Positions 5,255 to 18,543 are shown, numbered from the stretch's first letter. The stretch is DNA of 24,000 bases from an uncultured Eubacteriales bacterium (GCA_964615315.1 CAZTMZ010000003.1:45565-69564), one strand, 5' to 3'. Notes: generated by a model from the letters alone, not told the origin. Numbers and translations: made by a program.

Positions 5255-5887
5255 ATGAGCTGTTATGTAGAAAAAGTAATAAAAATTGCAAAGGCCGAAA
5301 TCGGCTATTTAGAAAAGGCAAGCAATAGTAATCTTGATAATAAGACTGCAAATGCAGGAGATAAAAATTACACTAAGTACGCTAGGGATTTGGACAGCAT
5401 TTCTGGTTTCTACAACGGAAAGAAACAAGGGTATCCTTGGTGTGATGTGTGGTTTGACTGGCTGTTTGTTCAAGCATACGGCGTTGAAAGTGCAAAAAGA
5501 TTACTTTGTCAGCCTAACAAGTCGCTAGGTGCTGGTTGTCAGTACTCTATGAATTACTATAAATCAAAAGGACAGCTCTATACTACTCCTAAAATTGGAG
5601 ACCAAATATTTTTTAAAAATAATTCTGATGAGATTGTTCACACGGGGTTTGTGTACGATGTGGATAAAACATATGTATATACAATCGAGGGCAATACGTC
5701 TTCTGCCAGTGGCGTAGTCGCTAACGGTGGCGGTGTATTTGCTAAAAAATATAAATTAACATATGAACGTATCGCGTGTTATGGTAGGCCAGCTTATGAC
5801 ACGGTTGAAAATAAAAATAATACAGCCGCCCATGTGGCAAATGGAGGGACTTGTACTGTGAATCTTAATGTGTTGAAAAAAGGAAAT
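5255..5887 (+). CDS. Endolysin exon 1: CHAP/NlpC-P60-type catalytic domain
   Basis: Catalytic Cys context GYPWCDVW, His context EIVHTGFVY, and TIEGNTS. The exon ends ...VLKKGN on U5887. The TAA at 5888-5890 is the first triplet of the intron. Confidence 0.85.
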
Positions 5888-6345
5888 TAACTAATGCAAT
5901 TTCTAAGCCTAGGTGTAACCGGGCGATTGCATTAGTATAGTTTCCGTATACAGAAATGTGTATGAAAAATTACTCACTGAATTGCTGGAATCCCCTAAAG
6001 CCTATGACGCTACAACGCGAGTCGTAAGACCGAACGTGAATGCAGTGAAAACAGAAAAAAGACATAGGATGATATATGGTTAAATCCTAAGTATCGTAAC
6101 AATGGGCAATCAGCAGCCAAGCTCCCAATTATTGACAACACAATATGAATGTGCTATAATAGTTGTGGAAAAGGTTCAACGACTATCCCGCAAGGGAGTA
6201 GGACACAAGCGATTGGTGTCCGAAGTGGTGAGCACCTAAGTCTCTTATGAGATATGGCGAAGATATAGTCTGTGCTCTACTGAAAGGTAGAGGCGCGAAA
6301 GCGCAGCGAGGCGTAGCGAGCCGATAGGAAAACAACCTTTTCTTA
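5888..6345 (+). ncRNA. Group I intron ribozyme core (IA2-like, with P7.1/P7.2)
   Basis: P1: ggaaaU(5882-5887) pairs with Gtttcc(5940-5945). P1 carries a perfect 10-bp extension hairpin, ctaatgcaat(5891-5900)/attgcattag(5926-5935). P2: gtatac(5946-5951)/gtgtat(5958-5963). Core elements: P aattgctggaa (5980-5990), Q caatcagcagc (6107-6117), R gttcaacgactat (6174-6186), S aagatatagtct (6260-6271). P7 is gactat/atagtc. GNRA-capped hairpins follow: ccc-gcaa-ggg and gcgc-gaaa-gcgc. From memory, the 3' core closely resembles the phage T4 td intron (AACGACTATCCC...GAGTAGG...GAGATATAGTCTGCTC). Confidence 0.85.
6132..6160 (+). promoter_or_regulatory. Perfect sigma-A/sigma-70 consensus promoter inside the intron (P6 region), facing tnpB
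   Basis: TTGACA (6132-6137), a 17-nt spacer (6138-6154), then TATAAT (6155-6160). A TG at 6152-6153 gives an extended -10 (TGcTATAAT). The homologous ORF-less intron has only a short hairpin at this position. Confidence 0.6.
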
Positions 6346-6369
6346 TCATGAATGAGAGGAGGTGCAACG

Positions 6370-7509
6370 ATGATTAAATCTTTTATAGTAAGGTTATACC
6401 TAACGAGAATACAAGAGGAGCTGGCGTGGAAGCACGTTGGCGCTTGCAGGTTCATTTGGAATTATATGCTTGACTACCAGCAGAGGTTATACGAATCAGA
6501 AAAGAAGCATCTACCTGCCTTTAGTATGATAAAACTTCTAACTCCGTTGAAGAATGACGGAGAGCATGGCTGGCTGTACGACGTATCGAACTCTTCCTTG
6601 CAAACAATCTGCCGCGATTTGGACGGAGCCTATCAGTGTTTCTTTAAGAAGGCTGCCGGTTTTCCGAAGTTCAAGTCGCGTAAGAAGAGTAAATCGAATT
6701 TTCCTGTATGCTGCAATAGATTCTACTTTGCAGACGAGAACTTCGTACAGATACAGAAGCTCGGCAAGGTTCGTTTCAAAACGGACTTTGAGCTTCCGAT
6801 TGGACGCGAGCATAAGTTCCTGAACCCCAGAATTTCCTACGTTAATGGGAAATGGCTACTGTCTTTTAGCATGGAGTGCGAGAACCAAGCGCCTGTATTG
6901 ACAGACAAGCCCATGGGTATAGATTTAGGTATTAAGGATTTAGCAGTGGCAGAATTTGACGGAAGGCCCATTGTCTTTCATAACATCAACAAGTCGAAGC
7001 GTATGCGGCAGCTCAAGCAGAGGCAGAAGCACTTGCAGAGAAGTATCTCCCGCAAGTACGAAGCGAATCGCAAGGGCAACCAGTATGTGAAGACGAAAAA
7101 CATTGAAAGGCAGGAGGAACAACTCCGCAAGCTCTATTCTCGAATCACGAACATCCGAACAAACTACATCCACCAAACCACACACGTTTTGGTTTCTCTC
7201 CTGCCTTGTCGAGTCGTCATGGAAGACTTAAACGTACAAAGCATGATGAAGAACCGACATCTGAGCAAGGCAATTCAGGAGCAGGGGTTCTATGAATTCA
7301 TCCGCCAAATGCAGTACAAGTGCGAGTGGAACGGTATCGAGTTCGTTCAGGTTTACAGGTTTTATCCGAGCAGCAAGACATGTTCCAAATGCGGCAACGT
7401 CAAGCGGAACCTGAAGCTGTCGGACAGAACGTATCATTGTGATTCGTGCGGAGCAGTAATTGACCGAGATTACAACGCTGCCATTAACCTTAGCAGATAC
7501 GTAGTCTAA
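6370..7509 (+). CDS. tnpB: TnpB RNA-guided DNA endonuclease (379 aa)
   Basis: RBS aggagg lies 7 nt before ATG 6370; the track start at 6352 is unlikely. The N-terminus MIKSFIVRLYLTRIQEE..CRFIWNYML is typical of TnpB. RuvC-I GIDLGIKD, RuvC-II VVMEDLNV, zinc ribbon CSKCG...CDSCG, and RuvC-III IDRDYNAAINL are all intact. Confidence 0.92.
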   Translation: MIKSFIVRLYLTRIQEELAWKHVGACRFIWNYMLDYQQRLYESEKKHLPAFSMIKLLTPLKNDGEHGWLYDVSNSSLQTICRDLDGAYQCFFKKAAGFPKFKSRKKSKSNFPVCCNRFYFADENFVQIQKLGKVRFKTDFELPIGREHKFLNPRISYVNGKWLLSFSMECENQAPVLTDKPMGIDLGIKDLAVAEFDGRPIVFHNINKSKRMRQLKQRQKHLQRSISRKYEANRKGNQYVKTKNIERQEEQLRKLYSRITNIRTNYIHQTTHVLVSLLPCRVVMEDLNVQSMMKNRHLSKAIQEQGFYEFIRQMQYKCEWNGIEFVQVYRFYPSSKTCSKCGNVKRNLKLSDRTYHCDSCGAVIDRDYNAAINLSRYVV

Positions 7510-7633
7510 TTGAAGAGACTATGGTCTTGAGGTGTTGTTGCACCTTTAAGCTGTGGAGAGCCATACAAACTTGAGTAGTTACGACGAAAGAGGGCTTGAT
7601 GAAGCAGTAAGTTTAGTTTGCTAAACACAACAG
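7510..7633 (+). ncRNA. IStron 3' structured region: candidate omega-RNA scaffold ending at the 3' splice site
   Basis: Hairpins: agac/gtct, aggtg/cacct and gtttag-tttg-ctaaac. They lie just before ...acaacaG7633. The position relative to the tnpB stop matches the TnpB omega-RNA paradigm. The scaffold probably starts inside the tnpB 3' end. Confidence 0.55.
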
Positions 7634-7819
7634 AAAAATAGTTCCGTAAAAGCATTGCAAATATTGTTAATTGGAAATGGCTATTCTTGTGGCTCTTATG
7701 GCGCAGACGGAGATTTCGGTACGGGAACGTATAATGCGGTTGTAAAATTTCAAAAAGCAAAAAAGATTGGCGCAGATGGAATTGTTGGAGCACAAACATG
7801 GGAGAAGCTATTAAAGTAA
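7634..7819 (+). CDS. Endolysin exon 2: PG_binding_1 cell-wall-binding domain
   Basis: Translation: KNSSVKALQILLIGNGYSCGSYGADGDFGTGTYNAVVKFQKAKKIGADGIVGAQTWEKLLK*. This fits the PG_binding_1 pattern (V..LQ.LL...GY.....DG.FG..T..AV..FQ......DG.VG..T...L). It has no start codon or RBS of its own. The frame is closed upstream at TAA 7622-7624. Confidence 0.85.
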   Translation, partial: KNSSVKALQILLIGNGYSCGSYGADGDFGTGTYNAVVKFQKAKKIGADGIVGAQTWEKLLK

Positions 7820-7832
7820 GTGGTGATGCTTT

Positions 7833-8195
7833 ATGTGGGATAAAATATTCCAAAGAAGGCTAAAAAGGATTGAAAGGCGCGGAGAAAGGCAAAAGGCGAA
7901 ACAAGAGATGATTGACAAGTATGCTGAATATTATCCGAGCAAACGACGTAAGGTCTCAAATGTTATGCTTGTTGTAGTGGTGAGCGCGATTACGATTTAT
8001 ACCGTTGCAAGTTTTTGGTTGACATATGCGACAGGGATGTCTATAGATTCCACGCTTACTACGTGTTTTTATGCGTTTATGTCAAGTGAATTAATTGCCC
8101 TTGCAAGTATAAAGTGCAGCAAGGTTATTAAGAGTAAGGACGACAGTTTTTGTGAAGAAAATAAAATTGATAATGATGACGAAGTTGTTGGATAA
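7833..8195 (+). CDS. Holin-like small membrane protein (two predicted TM helices)
   Basis: It lies directly after the endolysin. The N-terminus is basic. Hydrophobic segments: VMLVVVVSAITIYTVASFWLTYA and TTCFYAFMSSELIALASI. The C-terminal tail is acidic. Confidence 0.5.
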   Translation: MWDKIFQRRLKRIERRGERQKAKQEMIDKYAEYYPSKRRKVSNVMLVVVVSAITIYTVASFWLTYATGMSIDSTLTTCFYAFMSSELIALASIKCSKVIKSKDDSFCEENKIDNDDEVVG

Positions 8196-8209
8196 AAGGA
8201 GTGAAATGT

Positions 8210-8551
8210 ATGGAAAATTGGGTCAATATTGTAGTATCTATTCTTTCTGGGTTATGCGTGTGTGTTCCTTTAGTTGTAAAATTAGTTTCAGTAGTTGAAC
8301 AGTGTGTTCGCGAAAAGAATTGGAATGAATTAGTAAGTCTCATCATTCAATTTATGAACGAGGCTGAGTCTCTTTTTTCGTCCGGTGAGGAACGAAAAAA
8401 TTATGTCATGATTGCCATTAAGGCCAGTGCAGACACAATTGATTATGATATTGATATGGATATTGTTAGTAATATGATTGATGATTTGTGCGCTATGAGC
8501 AAGATTGTGAATGCTCCAAAAGAAGTTGAAGAAGCGAAGGCAGAGGGTTAA
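8210..8551 (+). CDS. Holin-like protein (N-terminal TM; possibly LL-H-type holin family)
   Basis: RBS aaggag lies 8 nt before ATG 8210; the track's GTG at 8201 sits on the RBS. TM segment: WVNIVVSILSGLCVCVPLVVKLV. Lysis-cassette context. The family assignment is from memory only. Confidence 0.45.
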   Translation: MENWVNIVVSILSGLCVCVPLVVKLVSVVEQCVREKNWNELVSLIIQFMNEAESLFSSGEERKNYVMIAIKASADTIDYDIDMDIVSNMIDDLCAMSKIVNAPKEVEEAKAEG

Positions 8552-8637
8552 TTCTTTCCGTTGTTATTACTACTACGAAAAATTACATTAATATAATGTT
8601 TTAATCTAATATAAGAATAAGAATGGAGTGACGTGCT

Positions 8638-8808
8638 GTGAATCAATATTTCTATTGTTATAGTTATCCGTTAAAAGAATTTTTAAAGAAGAATGGTTTG
8701 GAGTATATTACCGCAGCTACAAATCACTCGACCAATAAGACGTATTGGTTATTTGAAGGGAATGAAGAATTAAATATGTTACTTCAAAAATGGCGTTCAA
8801 ACAAATGA
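8638..8808 (+). CDS. Small hypothetical phage protein (56 aa, GTG start)
   Basis: It falls below the track's length cutoff. RBS ggag lies upstream. Translation: VNQYFYCYSYPLKEFLKKNGLEYITAATNHSTNKTYWLFEGNEELNMLLQKWRSNK. It resembles small helical phage proteins of Firmicutes. A hairpin aaaaatggc(8786-8794)/gccattttt(8811-8819) spans its stop codon. Confidence 0.4.
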   Translation: MNQYFYCYSYPLKEFLKKNGLEYITAATNHSTNKTYWLFEGNEELNMLLQKWRSNK

Positions 8809-8853
8809 ATGCCATTTTTATATTTTAGAAATGATGTTTTGGAGGAATGATTT

Positions 8854-10275
8854 ATGGGTAAGAAGTTAACTAAAGAAGAATTTATTAAAAGGGTTTATGA
8901 AAAAAATGAGCATGTAAGAAATGGAGAACTTGAGATTCGTGGAGAGTTCGTTGGGACAAAGGAACCAATAGAATGTTTTTGTACAATCCACCATGTTTTA
9001 TGGAACCCTAGACCGGACGATTTGTGGAAAGGAATTGGGTGTAGACAATGTGGGAGTGTAAAAACAGCGGACAAAAGGCGTGTAGATGCGGACACAATTA
9101 ATAGACGATTAGAACAAATAAATAATGGCGTTAAAATGATTGGTAAATGCTTCGGCGTTAGAGCGGAAACTGAGTTTCAATGTAGTTTGAATCATACATG
9201 GAGAGATCGACCTATTGATATTTTGAACGGCGTAGGATGCCCATATTGTAGCGGACATCGTGTTTGGGTTGGATTTAATGATTTATGGACAACACGTCCT
9301 GATGTTGCGAAGTTGTTATTGAATTCTAACGATGGCTATAAATATACATACGGTTCTAATAAAAAATTAGAATTTATTTGTCCAATTTGTGGGTCTATAA
9401 TAATAAAGTCCGCAAAAGAAGTCTGTCAAAATGGATTAGTTTGTCAACTTTGCTCTGATGGTATTTCATATCCAAATAAGCTTGGCAGGTTGTTATTAAC
9501 ACAGCTCAATGTAGAGAATATAAGATATGAGTGGAGCCCGGATTGGATCCAATCTTATTCTTACGATAATTATTTTGAATATTGTGGAAAAGCATATATT
9601 TTAGAGTTTGACGGTGGACTTGGGCATGGTAAAAAGAAATATAAATCAAATGAGCGCGATGTTATTGGCAAAGAAAGAGATATTTATAAAGATCGTTTGG
9701 CAGCAGATCATAATATAAAAGTTATAAGAGTCGATTGCGATTACACTGGAAAATGTAATGATCGTTTTATGTATATAAAAAATAATATTTTACAAAGTGA
9801 ATTGTGTAGCATTTTTGATTTGTCTTGTGTTGATTGGGAATATTGTGATTGTAATGCGCAAAAAACATTGATAAAACAAGTTGCGGATTTATACAATCAA
9901 GGTTTAAGCGTATCAGAAATACAAAAGATTGTAGGTTATTATATTAATACTATCCGTAAATGGTTAACTACGGCATCTAAATATAATTTATGTAATTATA
10001 ATAGAAAAGAGTCTAAAAGAAGAACAACTGATTCTATATACCGTTATATTAATCAATATTCTACAAATGGAGAATTTGTGAGAACATATAAATGTGTAGC
10101 TGAAGCCAGTGAAATTACTGGAGTTGATGATTCTTCGATTTATGGATGTTGTAAACATTATTCTGGGCATAAAACCGCAGGTGGATTTTTATGGTTTTAT
10201 GCTACAGATCTATATCAACCAGATAAATCAAAGATTATTGAATTAGCAATACAAAATGAATGTAAGGAGGTGTAA
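8854..10275 (+). CDS. Free-standing protein resembling a homing endonuclease: Zn-ribbon repeats + Vsr/PD-(D/E)XK-like core + HTH/NUMOD1-like DNA-binding C-terminus
   Basis: RBS ggagg is present. There are three Cys/His ribbon modules (CTIHH..CRQCG; CSLNH..CPYCSG; CPICG..CQLCS). The core motif YILEFDGGLGHG...ERD..KD is typical of Vsr/DUF559-type nucleases. An HTH follows (GLSVSEIQKIVGYYINTIRKWL). The C-terminus reads INQYSTNGEFVRTYKCVAEASEITGVDDSSIYGCCKH..KTAGGFLWFY, typical of phage homing-endonuclease DNA-binding repeats. The gene looks visibly AT-rich. Confidence 0.55.
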   Translation: MGKKLTKEEFIKRVYEKNEHVRNGELEIRGEFVGTKEPIECFCTIHHVLWNPRPDDLWKGIGCRQCGSVKTADKRRVDADTINRRLEQINNGVKMIGKCFGVRAETEFQCSLNHTWRDRPIDILNGVGCPYCSGHRVWVGFNDLWTTRPDVAKLLLNSNDGYKYTYGSNKKLEFICPICGSIIIKSAKEVCQNGLVCQLCSDGISYPNKLGRLLLTQLNVENIRYEWSPDWIQSYSYDNYFEYCGKAYILEFDGGLGHGKKKYKSNERDVIGKERDIYKDRLAADHNIKVIRVDCDYTGKCNDRFMYIKNNILQSELCSIFDLSCVDWEYCDCNAQKTLIKQVADLYNQGLSVSEIQKIVGYYINTIRKWLTTASKYNLCNYNRKESKRRTTDSIYRYINQYSTNGEFVRTYKCVAEASEITGVDDSSIYGCCKHYSGHKTAGGFLWFYATDLYQPDKSKIIELAIQNECKEV

Positions 10276-10278
10276 CCG

Positions 10279-12250
10279 ATGGAAATTATAAACGCTTTTA
10301 AAACTGTAACTGAACAAATTAAATCTTGGGTTGACGAGAATAAAGTGCAAAAAGTAAGCGGGAAAGGACTTTCTACAAATGATTATACCAATATAGATCG
10401 CCAAAAAGTAGAAGAAATGCCAAATGACTTAATGATTCTTAATGGAAAATTATATCTTGCACAGGATGGAACCCCAATTGACAGTTCTGCGGTACAGCTT
10501 CCTGAAGGTGGTGGCGGAGGCGGTGGTTCGAGTGCTACGATTACATTAAAGAATTTGCTAGATTCGTCCATCATAACATCTGCCGTTGGAAATTCAGTAG
10601 TTTTAAAATTCAGTTTTGCATCGTCTGAGGCAGATAGTGGTATGGCTTATATTTATGTCGGCGGTGTTCTGAAGGGTACGGCAGCTATAATTGCCGGAAG
10701 CAATACGTTGGATATTTCAGAATATGTTGGAGAAGGTTCCAATGAAGTTAAATTAACATGTATGGACGTGTATAGCAATAGTAAAAGCTTGGCGTATACT
10801 GTCAACATGGTTTCGTTGAGAGTGACATCTACTTTTGATGATTCTCAAGTTTATTCGGGCGATATTAGTGTTCGTTATATTGTTTATGGTGCAGTAGAAA
10901 AAACTATGCATTTTGTGGTCGATGACACAGATACCACTGTAACAGTAAGTGAAACTGGAAAACAACGAACACAGGTTTTACCAGCAATGTCGCATGGAAC
11001 ACATTTATTAAAAATTTATGCAACGGCTACAATTAATGGTGTTGAAGTTAAAAGCAACGAATTATTGTTTGATATATTGTGTGCCGTGGAAGGTGCGACT
11101 ACTCCGATGATTTCTTCTGCCTGTAACGTTATATCTGTAACCCAAGGAGAATTGATTAATATTCCATTTGTGGTTTATGATCCTTCTAATATGGAAACTG
11201 AAATTACTCTTACTATATCGCAGAATAACGAAATATACTTCACTTCTATGAGAACCGTAGATCGTACAAAACAAACTTGGAGTATAAGAAATTATCCTGT
11301 TGGCGAAGTAACTTTTACTATTACATATGGTGCTATTAGTAAAAGTCATATGATAACTGTTGCAGAGAATAATATTGATGTTTCTGTAAAAACAACGGAT
11401 TTAGAATTCCAACTTAGGGCGGCAGGTAAATCCAACGAAGATACGGATCGCGACACTTGGACTAGCGGCGACGTAACTACTATGTTCGAATACTTAAACT
11501 GGGAATCTACTGGTTGGGTTGCGGACGATGACGGTGATGTTGCTTTAAGGTTGTCTGGTGATGCAAAGGCAACAATTAATTTTATGCCGTTTAAATCAGA
11601 TGCTCGTCAGACAGGTAAAACAATTGAAATGGAATTTGCCATTCGTGATGTTAATAATCGCGATGCCGTTGCGATTTCTTGCTTGAATGGCGGTATTGGT
11701 TTTACTGTTACTGCAGATACGTTTGTAATGACAAGCGAACAGACGAAAATTAGTTGCAATTATACTGATGAAGAAAAGATAAGAATTGCTGTTGTAATTG
11801 AGCCACGTAGTGAATACCGTATGATGAGCGTTTATTTGAATGGTGTTTTATCTGGTGTTGAACAGTACCCCGAAACAGATAACTTTCAACAAACGTCTCC
11901 TACGAATATCGTTATTGGTTCTGAATATTGTTCTGTTGACTTATATACCATCCGTTCTTATGATGTAGCATTAACCGCAGATGAAATTAAAGACAATTAT
12001 ATTGCCGATATTACTGACATTAGTGAGAAAGCAGCGTTATATTCGGACAATGATATCTATGATGCGTTTGGTAATTTAAGCTTTTCTGCACTGAAGGATA
12101 AAATACCTGTGTTGGTTATTACGGGCACTTTGCCAACATATAAGGGAGATAAGAGAAAAGTAACTATTGCGTATACAGATCCACTAAATCCCAGTCTGGA
12201 TTTTGAGGATAGCGCAACAATTGATGTACAAGGCACATCAAGTCAGTATT
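10279..12250 (+). CDS. Giant tail/receptor-binding protein, exon 1
   Basis: RBS aaggagg is present. Fibre motif KVSGKGLSTNDYTNIDRQKV, a Gly7 linker and beta-rich domains. The exon ends ...IDVQGTSSQY + t at U12250. The track ORF runs on 35 nt into the intron, to TGA at 12283-12285. Confidence 0.8.
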
Positions 12251-12620
12251 CGAAATTTGGATACCGTATTGAGAAATCAGTATGAAAAAATACTCGTTTA
12301 ATTGCTGGAACACCCTAAAGACAAATAAACTACAACGTAAAGATGAAATATGCTTAAGCGTGAATGTTATGAAAATAGAAAAAAATATTTGTATGAGAGC
12401 GAGGTTAAATCCCCTGCTCTTTTTTAATGGGCAATCAGCAGCGAAGCCGTGAATAACGGAACGTTCAACGACTATTCTGAAAGGAAGTAGGCTGTAAGCG
12501 ATTGACAGTCGAAATGGCGAGGACCAGAAATGGTTAAGATATAGTCTATACTCAATGGAAACATTGAGAAGGAGAAATCCTTAGCACAGGAGTAGCGTCC
12601 TATGTTTAATACAATAGATG
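12251..12620 (+). ncRNA. ORF-less group I intron (370 nt), homologous to the IStron ribozyme
   Basis: P1: gtatUc(12246-12251)/ggatac(12259-12264), with U12250-G12260 at the splice site. P2: gtattg(12266-12271)/cagtat(12278-12283). Core elements: P aattgctggaa (12300-12310), Q caatcagcagc (12432-12442), R gttcaacgactat (12463-12475), S aagatatagtc (12536-12546). GAAA-capped P9 hairpins: ctcaatg-gaaa-cattgag and aagga-gaaa-tcctt. The terminal G12620 is the only G that both lies after the in-frame TAG (12593-12595) and restores the frame. Confidence 0.85.
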
Positions 12621-15600
12621 TTCGTAAAAACTGGAAAATTAAAACTTCAGAATATCATACATTAGATTTAGATCAAGTTCCTACAAAAATATTTTGCTGG
12701 AAGGCTGACTATGCTGAGGCGACTGGTAGCCACAACACGAGTACGGCTAATTATGCTCATATATTATATGGAGATGCTAAAACTCCGCCGCAGGAAGCCG
12801 ATTCTCGTGTAAGAACTACTGTTTATGGAAGACCAAGTGTAATTTTTCATAAAGCAGATAGTAGTTCGGACCCCGTATTTTACGGAAAGGCAAATGCAAA
12901 TATAGATAAAGGAGCACTTGAATGCTTTGGTTTTACTGAAGATTATTCAGATGCCCAGTGTGTAGAATTTTGCAATAACGTTTCAGAGGCATGTTTATTC
13001 CACAAAGAGATATCAGATGATTGGTCTGATGACTTTGAATTTCGTCAGCCCGATGGATACACGGATATCTCTGACTTCAAAATTGTACACGATTGGACAG
13101 TTAGCACATGGCAAGATGGGGCAACTGGAACTGCATTGAATGGATCGTATACAGGCATTGATGGTACTGTTTATACTAATGATACTGCGGCATATAGATT
13201 AGCAAAATTCAAGAAAGAATTTACAGATTATTATAATTTGGATTTTTGTTTAGTTTATTATGTGTTGACGTTTGTGCTAATGTGCGTAGACCAACGTGCG
13301 AAGAATATGTTTTTAACAACTTGGGACAAGGTTCATTGGGAGCCGTGGTTTTATGATAATGATACAATTTTAGGCATTAATAACGAAGGTAGATTGGTCT
13401 TCAGTCCTTTTTTGGAGGATGACGATCAGCTTGATGGAGCAAATGTTTTTAATGGAGCCACAAGTGCCCTTTGGGTGAATTTTAGAGAATCTTTCCCTAA
13501 TGAGATTCAGGCTTTGTATGCTTCTTGGCGTAGCGAAGGATTGTTAAGTTATGATCAGATAATTGAATATTTTATAACTCGCCAAACTGACAAATGGTCT
13601 ATTTCAGTTTACAGTGAAGATATAGATTTTAAGTATGTCTCTTTGCTGAGAGATGATGATGATGGTACTTACTTATATCAAGTAAGAGGTACTGGTGAAG
13701 AACATTTAAGATACTTTACTAAAGCTAGACTTAATTACTTAGACTCTAAGTGGTGCTGCGGTGATTATCCAAGTGATTACGTTTCGTTGCGTATTTATAC
13801 TCCAATGGATGAAAATAATAATCCACTAACTAATTTGCCAGTAGCTGCCAATCCAGATATTACGATAACACCTTATGAAAACACCTATGCAGGCGTTCAA
13901 TTTGGCGCAGGTAGTAACATTAATCAATATAAGGCGTATCAAAATGTTCCAATTACGCTTAAGTGGACAATGAATGGTTCTCCTAATGACCTTGAGACTT
14001 CGGTATTCCCGGCTTCTCAGATTAGTTCTTTGGGTGATTTGTCTCCTTTGTATTGCGGCACGATTAATGTTAGCAAAGCAGAGAAGTTAACTGAATTAAT
14101 TGTTGGCAATCAAACAAAAGGTTATTCCAATAACAATCTAACTGAATTGGCAGTTGGTGCCAATAACCTATTACAAAAAGTAGATATTTGTAACTGTCCT
14201 AATCTAGTTAAACCATTAGCGCTTTCTAACTGTCCAAATATTCAAGAAATTTATGCAATAGGTTCTGGTATTACTGGTCTTGAGTTGCCAACCTCTGGTT
14301 ATCTAAAGAAGGTGTATTTGCCAAATACTTTAACCAACCTAACAGTAACCAACCAACAATATATTGAAGAATTCGTTCTCGAAGGTTATGACAATTTGAC
14401 TACTCTTCGTATTGAAGATACTGTTAATATTCCTGTCGAAGACATAATGCTTAATGCGCCGAATTTGAATCGTATTCGTCTTATTGACGTTCAATGGGAA
14501 GCAGAGTCTGAGGCAGCGCTTGTTCAAACAATTGAAAAATTTAAGTCTTGTTTGGGTTTGGATGCTAACGGCAATAATACTGAGAACGCCATTGTTACCG
14601 GTAAAGTGCATGTCGCAGAGAAAGTCTCCAATGAAGTTTTCGGTGATGTTTATAATAGTTTCCCAGATCTTGTTATAGATGACGGCAGTGAAGAAATCTA
14701 TATTCTTAACTACAAAGACCGTGATGGTAAAATATTATATTCTACTAGAGTCGCAGAAGGGGCGAATGCGATAGATCCGATTGCACAGGGTTATATTGAG
14801 ACCCCAGACCCAATTATAACAGACACATATAGATATGAATTCGTCGCTTGGAGTACATTGCCAACCAACATTCAGAGGCATTATGTAATTATTGCGCAAT
14901 ACCACACTAAGTTTGCTATTAAATTTTATAATGAAGAAACATTATATTATACTCAGTGGTCCGTACAAGGCGACCCAGCTATCGACCCTGTTGTATCCGG
15001 CGCAATCACAGCTCCAACCAAGTCTGGCACGTCCGATATAAGCTATAAGTTCTCTGGTTGGGACAACCTGCCAACGAACGTTCAATCCACAGTTAACGTA
15101 TATGCTCAATACGATACCTATTGGGCTGTAAGATTCTGGAACGACAGTGTATTGTATTTAACAGAGTGGATCATCGAAGGTGGCAAACCCGTTAATCCTA
15201 GCACTTATTCCGAGGATTATACCAATCCAACTCGTACAAGTACGGCGCAATATGACTATCACTTCTCTAGTTGGGATGGTGACTTTGATACCGAAGTAAC
15301 ATCAACAAGAGAATTCTACGCCGTATATTCCAGTACAATTCGTAGATATAATGTCTACTTCTACAATGATAACGAACTGCTATACACCGTAGAAAATGTC
15401 CAATATGGTAGCAGTGCGTCTTATAGTGGTAGCACACCAACAAAACTCGGCGTTGAAGATCCAGACGAATACGTATTTAAGGGCTGGCTGCCTGCGCCTG
15501 AAAATATCACTGGCGAAACTAAATGTTATGCGCTGTATAAATTTACTGGTTACCTATTTGGTAAGTTAGGCAAGACTGATGATGACGATCAAGGCTATGG

Positions 15601-16321
15601 AACAGTTGATAGTCCAAACTGGGATGCGATCAATGCCTATTGGACAACTATTGCTGCTGATGTCTCATCCTACCAAAATGGTATTTTGGCAGAAGATGAT
15701 TTTACTGCAAAATATCAAATTGGTGGCCGAATGATTGTTCCAATTAACCTTTCGGATGGTACATCTACTATGGCAGATGTTGAAATTATTGCACACAACC
15801 ATGATAATCTAGCGGACGGCTCTGGTAAGGCGGCTTTAACATTCTTCTGTAAAGATCTTCCGCAGGTTCAGCGTGCTATGAATGAGTCTACTGTACTTAC
15901 TGGTTATAAAGATAGTATAATGCGTACTTTTGTCAATGAAGAATTGTTTGGCGTTCTTCCCAATGAACTAACGTTGGTAATCAAACCCGTAAAGAAAATT
16001 TCTGATGGTGGTGCGCAAAATCAGACACTAGTAACTACGACGGATTATTGTTGGATTGCGTCATATGATGAAGTTGGTTTTACTTCTGGTGGCTCAAATA
16101 TTTCTGGGCAGGGAGAGTTGTATGATGAAATATTTTCTAACAATAACAGTCGTAAAAAGTATATAACTGATAGCACCGATACTGGTGGATGGTGGCTGCG
16201 CACGTCAGTTCGTTCTACAAATTTAAGCAGCACTATGTTTTACAGAGTTCAGAAGTCGGGTGCGGCATATACGGATATTCAGACGAATCAATTTTATGTT
16301 GCATTTGGTTTTTGTATCTAA
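12621..16321 (+). CDS. Giant tail/receptor-binding protein, exon 2: CotH-like domain, LRR region, four Listeria/Bacteroides-type repeats, C-terminal WWLR domain
   Basis: The splice junction reads GTSSQY-F-RKNWKIK, which fits a CotH-type motif. A CotH-like core is present (DQRAKNMFLTTWDKVHWEPWFYDNDTILG). LRRs span about 14040-14480 (LTELIVGN..LTELAVGAN..CPNLVKPLALSNCPNIQEIY). Repeats span 14699-15538. The C-terminus contains GGWWLRTS. The spliced product is 1890 aa. Confidence 0.8.
14699..15538 (+). repeat. Four tandem coding repeats of about 70 aa (Flg_new / Listeria-Bacteroides repeat-like)
   Basis: The units start YILNYKD, FAIKFYN, WAVRFWN and YNVYFYN. Each ends in Y.F.(A/G/S)W....V......YA.Y (EFVAWSTLP..IIAQY; YKFSGWDNLP..VYAQY; YHFSSWDGDF..FYAVY; YVFKGWLPAP..CYALY). 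Confidence 0.7.
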
Positions 16322-16390: not shown

Positions 16391-16418
16391 TATTGAAATC
16401 TAAGGGAGGTGAATCTAT

Positions 16419-17021
16419 ATGACTGGTTTTGAAGAATTTTTAACTCTATTTGGAGGCATTACGGTTTCTCAAATTGTCGTTTTTGTGTTTGCGGTTATCT
16501 TTTTATTCTCTGTCTATAAAGAGATTAAAAAGTACGTCAACGTAAAAATTAAAGAACAGCAAACAAAAGCAGATGAAGAAAAGAATAACAAAAAGAAACT
16601 TGAAGAAGCGTGGGTCGCAACACAAAAGTATCCAGAGTATCGTAAAAAAAGTTTAGAAATACAGGAACTTCTTGAGGGCGAAATCCAAGAAGTAAAAAAC
16701 ACAGAAGAGACGGTAACAGAAGAATTAAAGAAACTGTCTTTACGTCTTGAAAAGATGGAGGAAGACACGAAACGCCGTGAGCGTAATCGTCTCAGAGATC
16801 TGCTGCTGAATCATTATCGTCATTATACAAACAAAGAACTAAATCCGTCACAATCATGGACGAGCATGGAAGCGGAGACATTCTGGGCGTTATTTAGCGA
16901 TTATGAGGATGCAGGTGGAGATGGTTACATGCACACTACGGTTCAGCCAGAAATGGAACGTTTACTAGTTGTGAACGTAGGTGAACTACCACAGACCGTA
17001 ACGGCCTGTGGCTTCCATTAA
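16419..17021 (+). CDS. Hypothetical membrane-anchored coiled-coil protein; its 3' end runs into the IS left end
   Basis: RBS gggagg is present. N-terminal TM segment ITVSQIVVFVFAVIFLFSV, followed by a charged coiled-coil. The last roughly 18 codons (from about 16966) and the stop codon lie inside the IS200/IS605 left-end hairpin structure. Confidence 0.6.
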   Translation: MTGFEEFLTLFGGITVSQIVVFVFAVIFLFSVYKEIKKYVNVKIKEQQTKADEEKNNKKKLEEAWVATQKYPEYRKKSLEIQELLEGEIQEVKNTEETVTEELKKLSLRLEKMEEDTKRRERNRLRDLLLNHYRHYTNKELNPSQSWTSMEAETFWALFSDYEDAGGDGYMHTTVQPEMERLLVVNVGELPQTVTACGFH

Positions 17022-17031
17022 ATAGTTCACC
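16980..17031 (+). repeat. IS left-end (LE) subterminal hairpin
   Basis: Outer 9-bp stem: ggtgaacta(16980-16988)/tagttcacc(17023-17031). Inner hairpin: ccacag(16989-16994)...taa...ctgtgg(17006-17011), with an inner GC stem ccg/cgg. It has the same architecture and the same CCACA/TGTGG core as the RE hairpin. Confidence 0.7.
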
Positions 17032-17268
17032 AGACTAAGTATTCAGAAACGAATACTACGATGATTACATTATGACACCCTTGGTTGACGCAACAGACCA
17101 CTGCTCTGTCGTATATCTTTAAGTTGGGTTGGAATAAGCAAAGCCCTGTGAGATATACATGTAAGTGTATTCATCATTGTCGAGTTGAGGACGGAACAAT
17201 TGTATGGTAACAGTACAATGTAGTACGCATTACCTGCCATTAGGCAGAGTATTTATAAGGAGAGGCTT
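17032..17268 (+). ncRNA. Candidate IscB omega-RNA scaffold (may extend 5' through the LE to about 16966)
   Basis: A long non-coding leader lies immediately 5' of iscB, which is the canonical omega-RNA location. Hairpins: agtattc-agaaac-gaatact (17038-17057), attgta-tggtaacag-tacaat, and ctgcc-atta-ggcag just before the RBS. No ORF is present. Confidence 0.5.
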
Positions 17269-18543
17269 ATGGTTTATGTAATTTCACAAGATAACAAACC
17301 ACTAATGCCTTGTAGTAATGCGATAGCAAGATTGTTATTAAAACAAGATAAGGCAAAAGTTAAGAAACGCAAGCCATTTACAATTAAATTGACTTATGAA
17401 ACAACAAATTATACACAAGAACTAACTTTAGGTGTTGATACTGGAAGTGGAACAATTGGCACTGCCGTTAGTAAAGATAATGGAGACATTGTTTACATGT
17501 CGGAGGTTATTGTCAGAAATGATATTACTGATAAGATGACACAAAGAGCAAAGTATCGTAGAAACAGACGAAATCGTAAAACTCGATATAGAAAGGCAAG
17601 ATGGTTAAATCGTGCCAATTCTATTAAAAATGACAGATTCAGTCCTACAATGCAAAGTAAACTTCATAGTCATGTAAAGGAAATAGAGTATATTAAATCC
17701 ATTCTTCCGATTACAAAAATGGTATTTGAAACTGGTCAGTTTGACACTCACCTTATGAAGAATCCATGTCTTGCAAATCCTAATGTAAGACATTGGGGAT
17801 ATCAAAAAGGTACAAATTATGGATTTGAAAACACAAAAACGATGGTTCTTAATCGAGACAATTATACTTGTCAACATTGCAAAGGCAAACACAAAGACAG
17901 TAAATTAGAAGTTCATCATATCGTATTTCGTAGTCAAGGTGGTTCAGATGAAGAAAGCAATTTAATCACACTTTGTCATACTTGTCATAAGAATTTACAT
18001 GACAGAAAAATTAAATTAAATCTTAAAGGCAAAACGAAAGGCACACTTAAATATGCCACACAAATGAATTCTATTAGAAAACAACTTTTCAGATTATATC
18101 CTGATGCGATTGAAACATTTGGATATGTAACAAAAACAAATCGTTTACAGTTAGGTGTAGATAAAGAACACTATTATGATGCTTGTACTATTGCGGCACA
18201 AGGGAATAGCTTTACTGTGAAAAGCAATCTCTATAAGAAAAAGTCTATTCCTGATGGTGATTTTCAGAAAACAAAAGGCATTCGTTCCGAGCAACCTATT
18301 ACAACTGGAAAGATTTGTGGATTCAGAAAGTTTGATAAGGTTCGCTACTTTGGAAATGATTATTTTATTAAAGGAAGAATGTCAATTGGATATGCAATTC
18401 TTATGGATATAGATGGTAACAAAATTGATTTTTCAGCAATGCCTAAAGGTTACAAAACACCAAAGATGGTAAATCTAAAAAGATTGGAGGCTCGGTCAAC
18501 ATGGATGATTACAACCGTGGTGGTCACTCCAAATACAGCATGA
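17269..18543 (+). CDS. iscB: IscB RNA-guided nuclease (424 aa; Cas9-ancestor type, RuvC with inserted HNH)
   Basis: PLMP motif at residues 11-14 (QDNKPLMPCS). RuvC-I LGVDTGSGTIG (D57). Arg-rich bridge helix KYRRNRRNRKTRYRKARW. RuvC-II MVFETGQFD. HNH CQHCKGK..LEVHHIVFRSQGGSDEESNLITLCHTCHKNLH. RuvC-III EHYYDACTIA. A C-terminal domain of about 100 aa follows. Confidence 0.92.
   Translation: MVYVISQDNKPLMPCSNAIARLLLKQDKAKVKKRKPFTIKLTYETTNYTQELTLGVDTGSGTIGTAVSKDNGDIVYMSEVIVRNDITDKMTQRAKYRRNRRNRKTRYRKARWLNRANSIKNDRFSPTMQSKLHSHVKEIEYIKSILPITKMVFETGQFDTHLMKNPCLANPNVRHWGYQKGTNYGFENTKTMVLNRDNYTCQHCKGKHKDSKLEVHHIVFRSQGGSDEESNLITLCHTCHKNLHDRKIKLNLKGKTKGTLKYATQMNSIRKQLFRLYPDAIETFGYVTKTNRLQLGVDKEHYYDACTIAAQGNSFTVKSNLYKKKSIPDGDFQKTKGIRSEQPITTGKICGFRKFDKVRYFGNDYFIKGRMSIGYAILMDIDGNKIDFSAMPKGYKTPKMVNLKRLEARSTWMITTVVVTPNTA

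Follow-up and report, generated by a model that had tools for sequence, protein, structure and literature searches.

A primary-sigma consensus promoter sequence inside the P6 hairpin of a tnpB-bearing phage intron

In an IStron a group I ribozyme, a tnpB gene and the omega-RNA that guides its product occupy one insertion in a protein-coding gene, and the published model for such elements is of a single full-length transcript with mutually exclusive fates (PMC4227781; 10.1101/2023.11.20.567912; PMC13521648). The question then arises as to whether the nuclease and its guide have to be made from the same RNA that must splice, or whether they can be supplied by an RNA of their own. The question is raised in acute form by an IStron that interrupts a phage endolysin gene in a stretch of 24,000 nucleotides (nt) from an uncultured Eubacteriales bacterium (GCA_964615315.1 CAZTMZ010000003.1:45565-69564; hereafter the window, with positions counted from its first letter), where a perfect match to the sigma-70/sigma-A promoter consensus is lodged in the P6 hairpin of the ribozyme, upstream of tnpB and on the same strand. 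In what follows, the promoter sequence and its setting are described, its occurrence in other introns is traced, and the roles that it may play are weighed.

The promoter sequence and the IStron around it

The sequence-only reading of this locus had proposed a promoter of the form TTGACA-17-TGcTATAAT at 6132-6160, and this proposal is borne out letter for letter. A -35 hexamer TTGACA (6132-6137) and a -10 hexamer TATAAT (6155-6160) are separated by a spacer of 17 nt (6138-6154), which contains the extended -10 dinucleotide TG at 6152-6153. All 12 hexamer positions therefore agree with the consensus, the spacer falls within the usual 17 ± 1 nt, and the TGn extension, a common feature of promoters in Firmicutes, is present. 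When one mismatch is allowed this is the sole match to the pattern in the window, and it is also the only 12/12 site returned by promoter scans. From base composition, 0.012 exact sites would be expected per window on both strands, or 0.0007 if the TG is included, and, with spacers of 16-18 nt, 3.5e-4 in the 482 nt of sense strand that separate the 5' splice site from tnpB. The promoter lies within the intron and on its sense strand, its -10 ending 210 nt before the tnpB ATG. Moreover, an independent assembly from raw reads (Logan SRR10277277, L321) is 100% identical across window positions 5370-8509 (3,140 nt), promoter included, such that the sequence is not an assembly artefact.

The placement of this promoter in P6, between the Q and R elements of the ribozyme, was likewise correctly read, as judged from the Rfam match and from the positions of Q and R (Table 1). 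So too was the comparison with the sister intron of the same window, which has at the equivalent position only a 4-bp hairpin, ccgt-gaata-acgg, at 12447-12459. Downstream of the promoter no terminator is predicted between 6160 and 8786, and an unprocessed transcript from P6 is likely to end only at the first strong intrinsic terminator, beyond two small open reading frames (ORFs; 7833-8551).

The element that carries the promoter is indeed an IStron in an endolysin gene, as had been claimed, on the combined evidence of Rfam, Pfam and the alignment of the joined exons. At its 5' end the match to the group I intron model scores 84 bits (E = 2.5e-20), the gathering score being 50. TnpB retains its RuvC motifs (GIDLG, MEDLN and DRDYNAAINL) and matches PDB entry 8iaz (E = 3.9e-66) as well as ISDra2 TnpB (E = 4.5e-45). 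The omega-RNA scaffold is followed by a short hairpin and then by the inferred 3' splice site at G7633, 23 nt past the scaffold end, and the predicted guide is the first part of exon 2 (7634 onwards). When 5887 is joined to 7634, the product is an endolysin of 272 amino acids (aa) with a catalytic and a peptidoglycan-binding domain, of which residues 1-271 align unbroken with annotated phage endolysins. The presence of ribozyme, tnpB and omega-RNA, together with this restored frame, identifies 5888-7633 as an IStron without tnpA, and the lack of tnpA makes it a non-autonomous element.

Its two ends were deduced from the restoration of the reading frame, from an exon that ends in U and from an intron that ends in G. 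The 5' splice site is placed by reading-frame logic only, since the best P1 that can be drawn by eye sets U5887 opposite A5899 and has no U·G pair. Just within the 5' end there is, by eye, a perfect 10-bp inverted repeat (5891-5900/5927-5936, CTAATGCAAT ... ATTGCATTAG), which may represent P2 or the left-end hairpin of a transposon, and which competes with the best drawable P1.

Table 1. Features of the endolysin IStron and its surroundings in the window
Feature	Position	Strand	Basis or remark
Endolysin exon 1	5255-5887	+	211 codons; seeming stop TAA at 5888-5890 is intron sequence (ORF list)
IStron (group I ribozyme, tnpB and omega-RNA; tnpA absent)	5888-7633	+	
Group I ribozyme core	5940-6292	+	Rfam RF00028 Intron_gpI, full model 1-253
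Q element AATCAGCAGC	6108-6117	+	
P6 hairpin, 56 nt	6118-6173	+	between Q and R; bulged stem enclosing the promoter
Candidate sigma-70/sigma-A promoter	6132-6160	+	sequence; promoter scans
Predicted transcription start	6166-6169	+	6-9 nt past the -10, from the usual -10 to +1 distance
R element GTTCAACGACTA	6174-6185	+	
Hairpin sequestering the Shine-Dalgarno sequence, 12 bp	6335-6363	+	6335-6346 with 6352-6363; folding
tnpB Shine-Dalgarno sequence GAGAGGAGG	6354-6362	+	inside the 12-bp hairpin
tnpB (379 aa)	6370-7509	+	Pfam HTH_OrfB_IS605, OrfB_IS605, Cas12f1-like_TNB
RAGATH-18 RNA (omega-RNA scaffold)	7550-7610	+	Rfam RF03064, 61.1 bits
Endolysin exon 2 (peptidoglycan-binding domain)	7634-7820	+	stop 7818-7820
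First strong intrinsic terminator downstream	8786-8819	+	14-bp stem and T run
ORF-less sister group I intron	12239-12568	+	Rfam, 74.6 bits; minimal P6; comparison case
Predicted intron-less TnpB target junction			GGAAAT/AAAAATAGTTCCGTAAAAGC

IStron relatives and the recurrence of the cassette

Relatives of tnpB were gathered from viral contigs, metagenomes and genomes, the nearest homologues (74-78% identity) being drawn from a set of 5.8 billion proteins. Those counted here as IStron relatives are the ones with a readable P6, that is 31 from three collections and six from among the nearest TnpB homologues, some 37 in all. In every one of them P6 is 19-20 nt long and of the form caag-CCTC-gaaaa-GAGG-aag, and over the 520 nt that precede tnpB no promoter-like site exceeds 10/12. 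The window P6 is longer by about 36 nt, and this extra stretch is essentially the promoter. The same contrast is drawn most closely by locus L318, which between the R element and the start codon of tnpB resembles the window closely by eye, but in which P6 is minimal. Conservation of the motif in close IStron relatives had been put forward as a check that could refute the sequence-only reading, and the motif is missing in all of the roughly 37 (closest TnpB 74-78%). In other words, because it is absent from every IStron relative examined, the P6 cassette is an acquisition of one lineage and not an IStron-wide solution.

No TnpB more than 78% identical to that of the window was found in the viral, metagenome, genome or 5.8-billion-protein collections, except for the identical re-assembly. 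The ribozyme core is 65-79% identical to those of the IStron relatives and 70-77% identical to those of introns bearing homing-endonuclease genes, and these values, being about equal, do not distinguish an exchange of the whole 5' part of the element from an exchange of P6 alone. A second TnpB (P0111), 70% identical to that of the window, is recorded on a contig equal in length (108,431 nt) to the one that carries the window TnpB, and may derive from another IStron of this phage. A further IStron without tnpA lies in a sensor histidine kinase gene of Clostridium botulinum plasmid p1BKT015925 (NC_015417.1, ~13.63-13.71 kb; L317 3966-4044). Its P6 is minimal, and a site TTGACA-17-TGtTATCAT (11/12 with TG) ends 28 nt upstream of its tnpB ATG. 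This site is divergent from a 49-aa ORF on the opposite strand, probably the Arc-like ORF described in published work, towards which a second promoter-like site points. Given the 11/12 site, internal promoters may occur elsewhere in IStrons, at other positions.

Outside IStrons the cassette is found repeatedly. Viral contigs were searched for the Q and R elements of this intron family with a long P6 between them, no promoter being required. Among 127 distinct long P6 hairpins a 12/12 promoter is present in four and one of at least 11/12 in seven; hexamer pairs permuted over the same hairpins averaged 0.12, with a maximum of 2, and reached the observed count in 0 of 300 permutations. A direct scan of viral contigs with the pattern AATCNGCAGC-N4-24-TTGACA-N16-18-TATAAT, which is to say beside a Q element, returned 62 exact matches, as compared with none for permuted hexamers. 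Since Rfam misses introns that have an ORF inside P6, the 43 distinct pattern matches include about 14 that are not confirmed as introns. The scan made no demand for a TG before the -10, which is nonetheless present in 23 of the 43 distinct cassettes against an expectation of about 6%. Similarly, in all 25 distinct cassettes with a nearby R (24 and that of the window) the spacer is 16 or 17 nt long and never 18.

These cassettes fall into at least four architectures with unrelated spacers and differing lead lengths, in which only the two hexamers are held in common. Their basal stems covary (TTCC/GGAA, CTCC/GGGG, TTGCC/GGTAA, TTTTTGG/CCAGAAA and others), and the hexamers are paired in some of the predicted hairpins and unpaired in others. 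The constancy of the hexamers, set beside the variation in spacer and pairing and the covariation of the flanking stems, points to a promoter at the DNA level that is dressed as an RNA hairpin, and not to an RNA motif. The window P6 itself has close homologues: over 56 nt, and with no insertions or deletions in alignments compared by hand, it is 80% identical to the P6 of L140/L205 and 77% identical to that of L190. All differences are confined to the spacer and stems, one stem pair changing from U·G to A-U. The window spacer departs from the consensus of this subfamily at 4 of 17 positions and the stems differ by about 25%, the hexamers (12/12) and TG being unchanged. The recurrence is non-random, and the homology suggests that the cassette has been shared among introns by descent or by recombination.

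As to what the cassettes precede, an ORF of at least 149 aa lies within ~60-330 nt downstream in 19 of the 21 closed-hairpin cassettes with enough flanking sequence. Among the first downstream ORFs of a wider set of 33 cassettes, homing-endonuclease families prevail in the Pfam tally, with LAGLIDADG_3 (six), GIY-YIG (five), HNH_3 (five), I-HmuI NUMOD (five) and DUF4379/CapR (three). The layout of the window, ribozyme followed by tnpB, is reproduced in L205, where a ribozyme at 574-937 is followed by a GIY-YIG ORF at 1009-1794 and the -10 again stands ~200 nt from the ATG. In a second group of cassettes the ORF begins directly past the -10, inside P6, as in the td intron of phage T4. No TnpB is found among 113 downstream ORFs, and the window is the only TnpB case found. 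A strict association between a P6 promoter and an intron ORF was considered and is ruled out by exceptions in both directions.

Two observations concern the spacer and a phage annotation, respectively. A motif AATACAAAATTAA(T/C)G is conserved in shifting registers: window-type cassettes have it within the spacer, and in the class-2 cassettes (P6 of L044, L107, L169, L173, L177 and L189; compare the L313 loop at 5256-5296) it follows a tandem TATAATnTATAAT. A loop motif of the RNA and a site for protein binding are both conceivable. In Staphylococcus phage Romulus (L316, JX846613.1) the depositors annotated promoters predicted by MEME at 1832-1861 and 1952-1980; these sit in an interruption of a capsid gene that is similar in sequence to the 5' half of the window ribozyme, and one of them, TTGGTA-17-TAAAAT, covers the counterpart of Q and P6. 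Rfam reports no group I intron at the gathering score at the Romulus locus.

Weighing the possible roles of the P6 promoter

On this evidence the match in P6 is probably a functional primary-sigma promoter, at which transcription would start near 6167 and give an unspliceable RNA carrying tnpB and the omega-RNA. The 56-nt P6 would then be coded twice, being at the RNA level a harmless extension of a hairpin that tolerates insertions, and at the DNA level a strong promoter for the primary sigma factor. P1-P5 would be missing from an RNA that starts at about 6167, as would the 5' strands of P3 and P6, in agreement with the sequence-only reading, which had this transcript containing tnpB and the omega-RNA and not the 5' part of the ribozyme. 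With the 5' half of the ribozyme gone, such an RNA would be unable to splice. It would run from the 3' half of the ribozyme through tnpB and the omega-RNA into exon 2, and would supply both TnpB mRNA and guide RNA without recourse to the phage promoter of the endolysin gene. The catalytic motifs of TnpB and the omega-RNA are both intact, which counts in favour of a functional promoter. It is the activity of the promoter, its start site and its effect on the balance between splicing and guide production that we infer from the sequence; a model of two transcript classes is plausible in that it fits the anatomy.

The recurrence of the hairpin-promoter module ahead of homing-endonuclease genes adds to this picture, in that the nuclease and guide of the IStron probably come from a separate, non-splicing transcript. 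The module would be one that is common to phage group I introns with homing-endonuclease genes 3' of the ribozyme core, and the IStron would thus express its RNA-guided nuclease as mobile phage introns express their protein-only nucleases. A broader reading can be put forward tentatively, as possible but some way short of probable, in which the promoter-in-hairpin P6 is a portable, widespread and unnoticed expression module of phage group I introns, exchanged whatever nuclease is carried, and captured here by an IStron to provide a dedicated, non-splicing transcript for TnpB and its guide.

Several observations weigh against a functional role in tnpB expression. None of the roughly 37 IStron relatives has the cassette, from which it follows that IStrons do not need it. 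Two sets of introns (L214/L211 and L195) seem to be ORF-less yet carry the P6 promoter, L313 retains a GIY-YIG ORF although its cassette is truncated and its -10 absent, and introns with a low-scoring P6 often carry endonuclease genes (NUMOD1 27 times and GIY-YIG 11 times among 80 ORFs). Furthermore, in the window-type subfamily the spacer ATACAAAATTAATGTG is nearly as conserved as the hexamers, and its A-rich motif AATACAAAATTAAT is found elsewhere too, downstream of the -10 in another class and as a bare P6 loop in L313, which has no -10; conservation of the motif in different places means that part of the module may have a role at the RNA level or in protein binding. Lastly, the Shine-Dalgarno (SD) sequence of tnpB is sequestered, with a probability of being unpaired of ~0.02 in the folded P6-initiated and read-through transcripts alike, such that extra transcription need not give much more TnpB.

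This SD hairpin has covarying equivalents in most of the IStron relatives, within the 70 nt upstream of tnpB (among them L001, L008, L012, L013, L220, L221, L231, L237, L239, L241 and L299), and is not seen in intron-less insertion-sequence relatives with a proximal promoter (L032, L026, L257, L294, L035, L040 and L251). It looks like a conserved translational mask that keeps ribosomes off the intron. One conceivable release would have the anti-SD strand, CCUUUUCU, captured by the first nucleotides of the P6-initiated RNA, GGAAAAGG, such that the tnpB ribosome-binding site is freed in the internal transcript alone; this is ruled out by folding, which retains the local 12-bp hairpin in both RNAs. 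Hairpins that mask the ribosome-binding sites of intron ORFs are known (PMC3073962).

Set against these considerations, the strongest form of the two-transcript idea is that the promoter evolved specifically to resolve the conflict between splicing and guide production, with read-through RNAs splicing and internal RNAs making TnpB and the omega-RNA. The anatomy fits, the conflict is real in published work, and the C. botulinum plasmid IStron described above has its own promoter-like site upstream of tnpB. This form is doubtful, however, as the module is older than this IStron, serves homing-endonuclease genes, which work without a guide RNA, and occurs in none of the IStron relatives, and as TnpB would act in trans on the omega-RNA part of read-through RNAs too. 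The earlier claim of a solution to the conflict was in this respect overstated, because internally made TnpB can still repress the splicing of read-through transcripts in trans, as TnpB does in a published IStron system (10.1101/2023.11.20.567912). Indeed, given this repression, the internal promoter could worsen the rescue of the endolysin, and more TnpB could be harmful to it unless expression is separated in time. It might also be supposed that the cassette is a relic of an endonuclease-bearing intron, intact only through youth and of no useful role for TnpB and the omega-RNA, for instance because it is silent or irrelevant in infection. Its absence from all the IStron relatives, its homologues in endonuclease-bearing introns and its presence in ORF-less introns (L214, L195) are all consistent with such an origin, and the insertion is probably recent, given how closely L318 resembles the window by eye from R to the start of tnpB. 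A relic is nevertheless unlikely, in that the 12 hexamer positions and the TG are intact where spacer and stems have diverged; by a rough estimate the chance of no change in 14 positions at ~23% divergence is ~0.03. In addition, promoters that combine consensus hexamers with an extended -10 are seldom silent with the primary sigma factor.

If the promoter is active, its object may still not be tnpB. The promoter might restore or add transcription of the small ORFs at 7833-8551, possibly a holin, which the 1.7-kb insertion would have moved away from their own promoter; the lack of a predicted terminator from 6160 to 8786 would allow this, and ORF-less introns with a P6 promoter, such as L214 in a tape-measure gene, would be in keeping with it. 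There is also a precedent in phage T4, in which the endonuclease genes seg and mob embed promoters for downstream host genes (PMC2988022). Yet a constitutive primary-sigma promoter ahead of lysis genes would be risky, an intron ORF follows the cassette in 19 of 21 evaluable cases, and processing of the omega-RNA by TnpB, as known from published TnpB biology, would cut the RNA ahead of exon 2, so that a role in serving phage genes downstream is quite unlikely. Most improbable of all is that the hairpin is an RNA element only, a peripheral P6 extension that aids the folding or docking of the ribozyme and matches a promoter incidentally. The stretch does fold as a hairpin with stems that covary among homologues, and AATACAAAATTAAT is conserved at varying positions relative to the hexamers. 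But the hexamers are invariant despite unrelated spacers and different pairing states, the TG is enriched, the spacing is restricted to 16-17 nt, and permuted-hexamer controls give no matches; moreover the fold z-score of the P6 is only -1.3, and close IStron relatives presumably splice with a P6 of 20 nt. A functional primary-sigma promoter for tnpB and the omega-RNA accordingly remains the preferred reading.

A separate idea, that TnpB represses its own promoter, was considered because the first 20 nt of exon 2 (7634-7653), the predicted guide, match the -10 and its downstream sequence (6155-6174) at 14 of 20 positions, with a local p of ~0.008 against shuffled guides. The operator of the intron endonuclease I-TevI resembles its homing site at 15 of 20 positions. 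The match in the window is marginal, has no target-adjacent motif and is equalled at six places in the window, and it is probably due to chance.

Neighbouring elements, known systems and implications

The region around the IStron is phage-like, with tail-repeat and large structural ORFs, the endolysin, small membrane ORFs and a free-standing HNH-type endonuclease gene, and Rfam finds in it two group I introns (5940-6292 and 12239-12568), the RAGATH-18 RNA (7550-7610) and a HEARO RNA (16981-17197). The free-standing ORF (8854-10275; phrog_559 HNH endonuclease, NUMOD1 and helix-turn-helix) lies directly upstream of the large gene that holds the ORF-less intron, ~2 kb ahead of the intron itself, a layout that recalls 'collaborative homing'. 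That gene (10279-16321) is a very large structural gene, which the intron splits into parts of 668 and 1239 aa, both matching phrog_14959. The HEARO omega-RNA (99.5 bits) precedes an IscB gene (RRXRR and HNH), the whole stretch spanning 16981-18543; it follows ORF 16419-17021 and overlaps the 3' end of that ORF, and no promoter-like site of at least 9/12 is present on the + strand from 16400 to 17000. A single phage region thus combines a TnpB IStron, an IscB element, a free-standing endonuclease gene and an ORF-less intron.

Of the known systems, the introns of phage T4 are nearest in principle. The td ORF is housed in the P6 loop (PMC3073962), with a late promoter directly upstream of it (PMC2988022). 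As in the window, the promoter is within a phage group I intron, on the sense strand, upstream of a nuclease gene and nested in the transcription unit of the host gene, and the ribosome-binding site of the intron ORF is hidden by an RNA hairpin. The differences are several. The T4 promoters are of the phage middle and late classes, whereas that of the window has the consensus of the host primary sigma factor with an extended -10. The T4 late start is placed such that the inhibitory hairpin cannot form, whereas in the window the SD hairpin is predicted in both transcripts. Finally, the window P6 is a closed hairpin that holds the promoter alone, the gene standing after P9, ~210 nt downstream, and the cargo is TnpB with a guide RNA.

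With the described IStrons (CdISt1/CdiIStron, CboIStron, CseIStron and BcISt1; PMC4227781; 10.1101/2023.11.20.567912; PMC13521648) the window element shares a 5' ribozyme followed by tnpB, an omega-RNA that overlaps the 3' splice site and a protein-coding host gene that splicing reframes; it differs in lacking tnpA, in residing in a phage endolysin gene and in having the P6 cassette. The metagenomic endonuclease introns (L205/L140, L190, L212, L171 and L177) have the homologous P6 cassette (77-80% for L140 and L190), the same distance of ~200 nt from -10 to ORF and cores 70-77% identical to the window ribozyme, and differ in a cargo of GIY-YIG, HNH or LAGLIDADG type without an omega-RNA, and in their hosts, which are capsid, terminase, tape-measure and other genes. 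In intron-less relatives of the IS200/IS605 type, a TG-extended promoter inside the element similarly drives tnpB and the omega-RNA; 7 of 53 such relatives have a site of at least 10/12 with TG at 49-69 nt upstream of the ATG (12/12 in L032). Here the promoter adjoins the gene, and there is neither a ribozyme nor an SD-sequestering hairpin. According to Zhou, Manias and Dunny (2000), as cited in PMC3073962, the group II intron Ll.LtrB also has an internal promoter, from which the intron-encoded protein is expressed. The likeness is one of an intron-internal promoter and of a protein made separately from the host gene; the differences are the intron class, the reverse transcriptase/maturase cargo and a protein that aids splicing instead of competing with it.

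The claim of novelty in the sequence-only reading consequently holds in part. No internal promoter or transcription start is described in the IStron literature that was searched; the principle of an intron-internal promoter for an intron nuclease gene is known from T4. What appears to be new is the sigma-70/sigma-A form of the promoter within P6, the recurrence of the cassette and its attachment to TnpB and an omega-RNA.

Should the promoter be active, then the production of guide and nuclease by an IStron need not draw on the transcripts that must splice for rescue of the host gene, and a transcriptional layer would be placed on top of the published tug-of-war between splicing and guide at the RNA level. 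It would also tie TnpB introns to homing-endonuclease introns through a common expression module, cargo position and hairpin masking the ribosome-binding site, and this sharing supports the view of TnpB as the homing nuclease of the intron in competition between phages. The survey suggests that ~5% of the long-P6 phage introns in this family hold a consensus host promoter in their ribozyme, and a P6 promoter could help to predict which metagenomic introns express a cargo, and to design compact, self-expressing intron cassettes. If the tentative reading of a portable cassette is true, the IStron would be an RNA-guided homing intron, the supply of its nuclease being uncoupled from both the expression and the splicing of the host gene.

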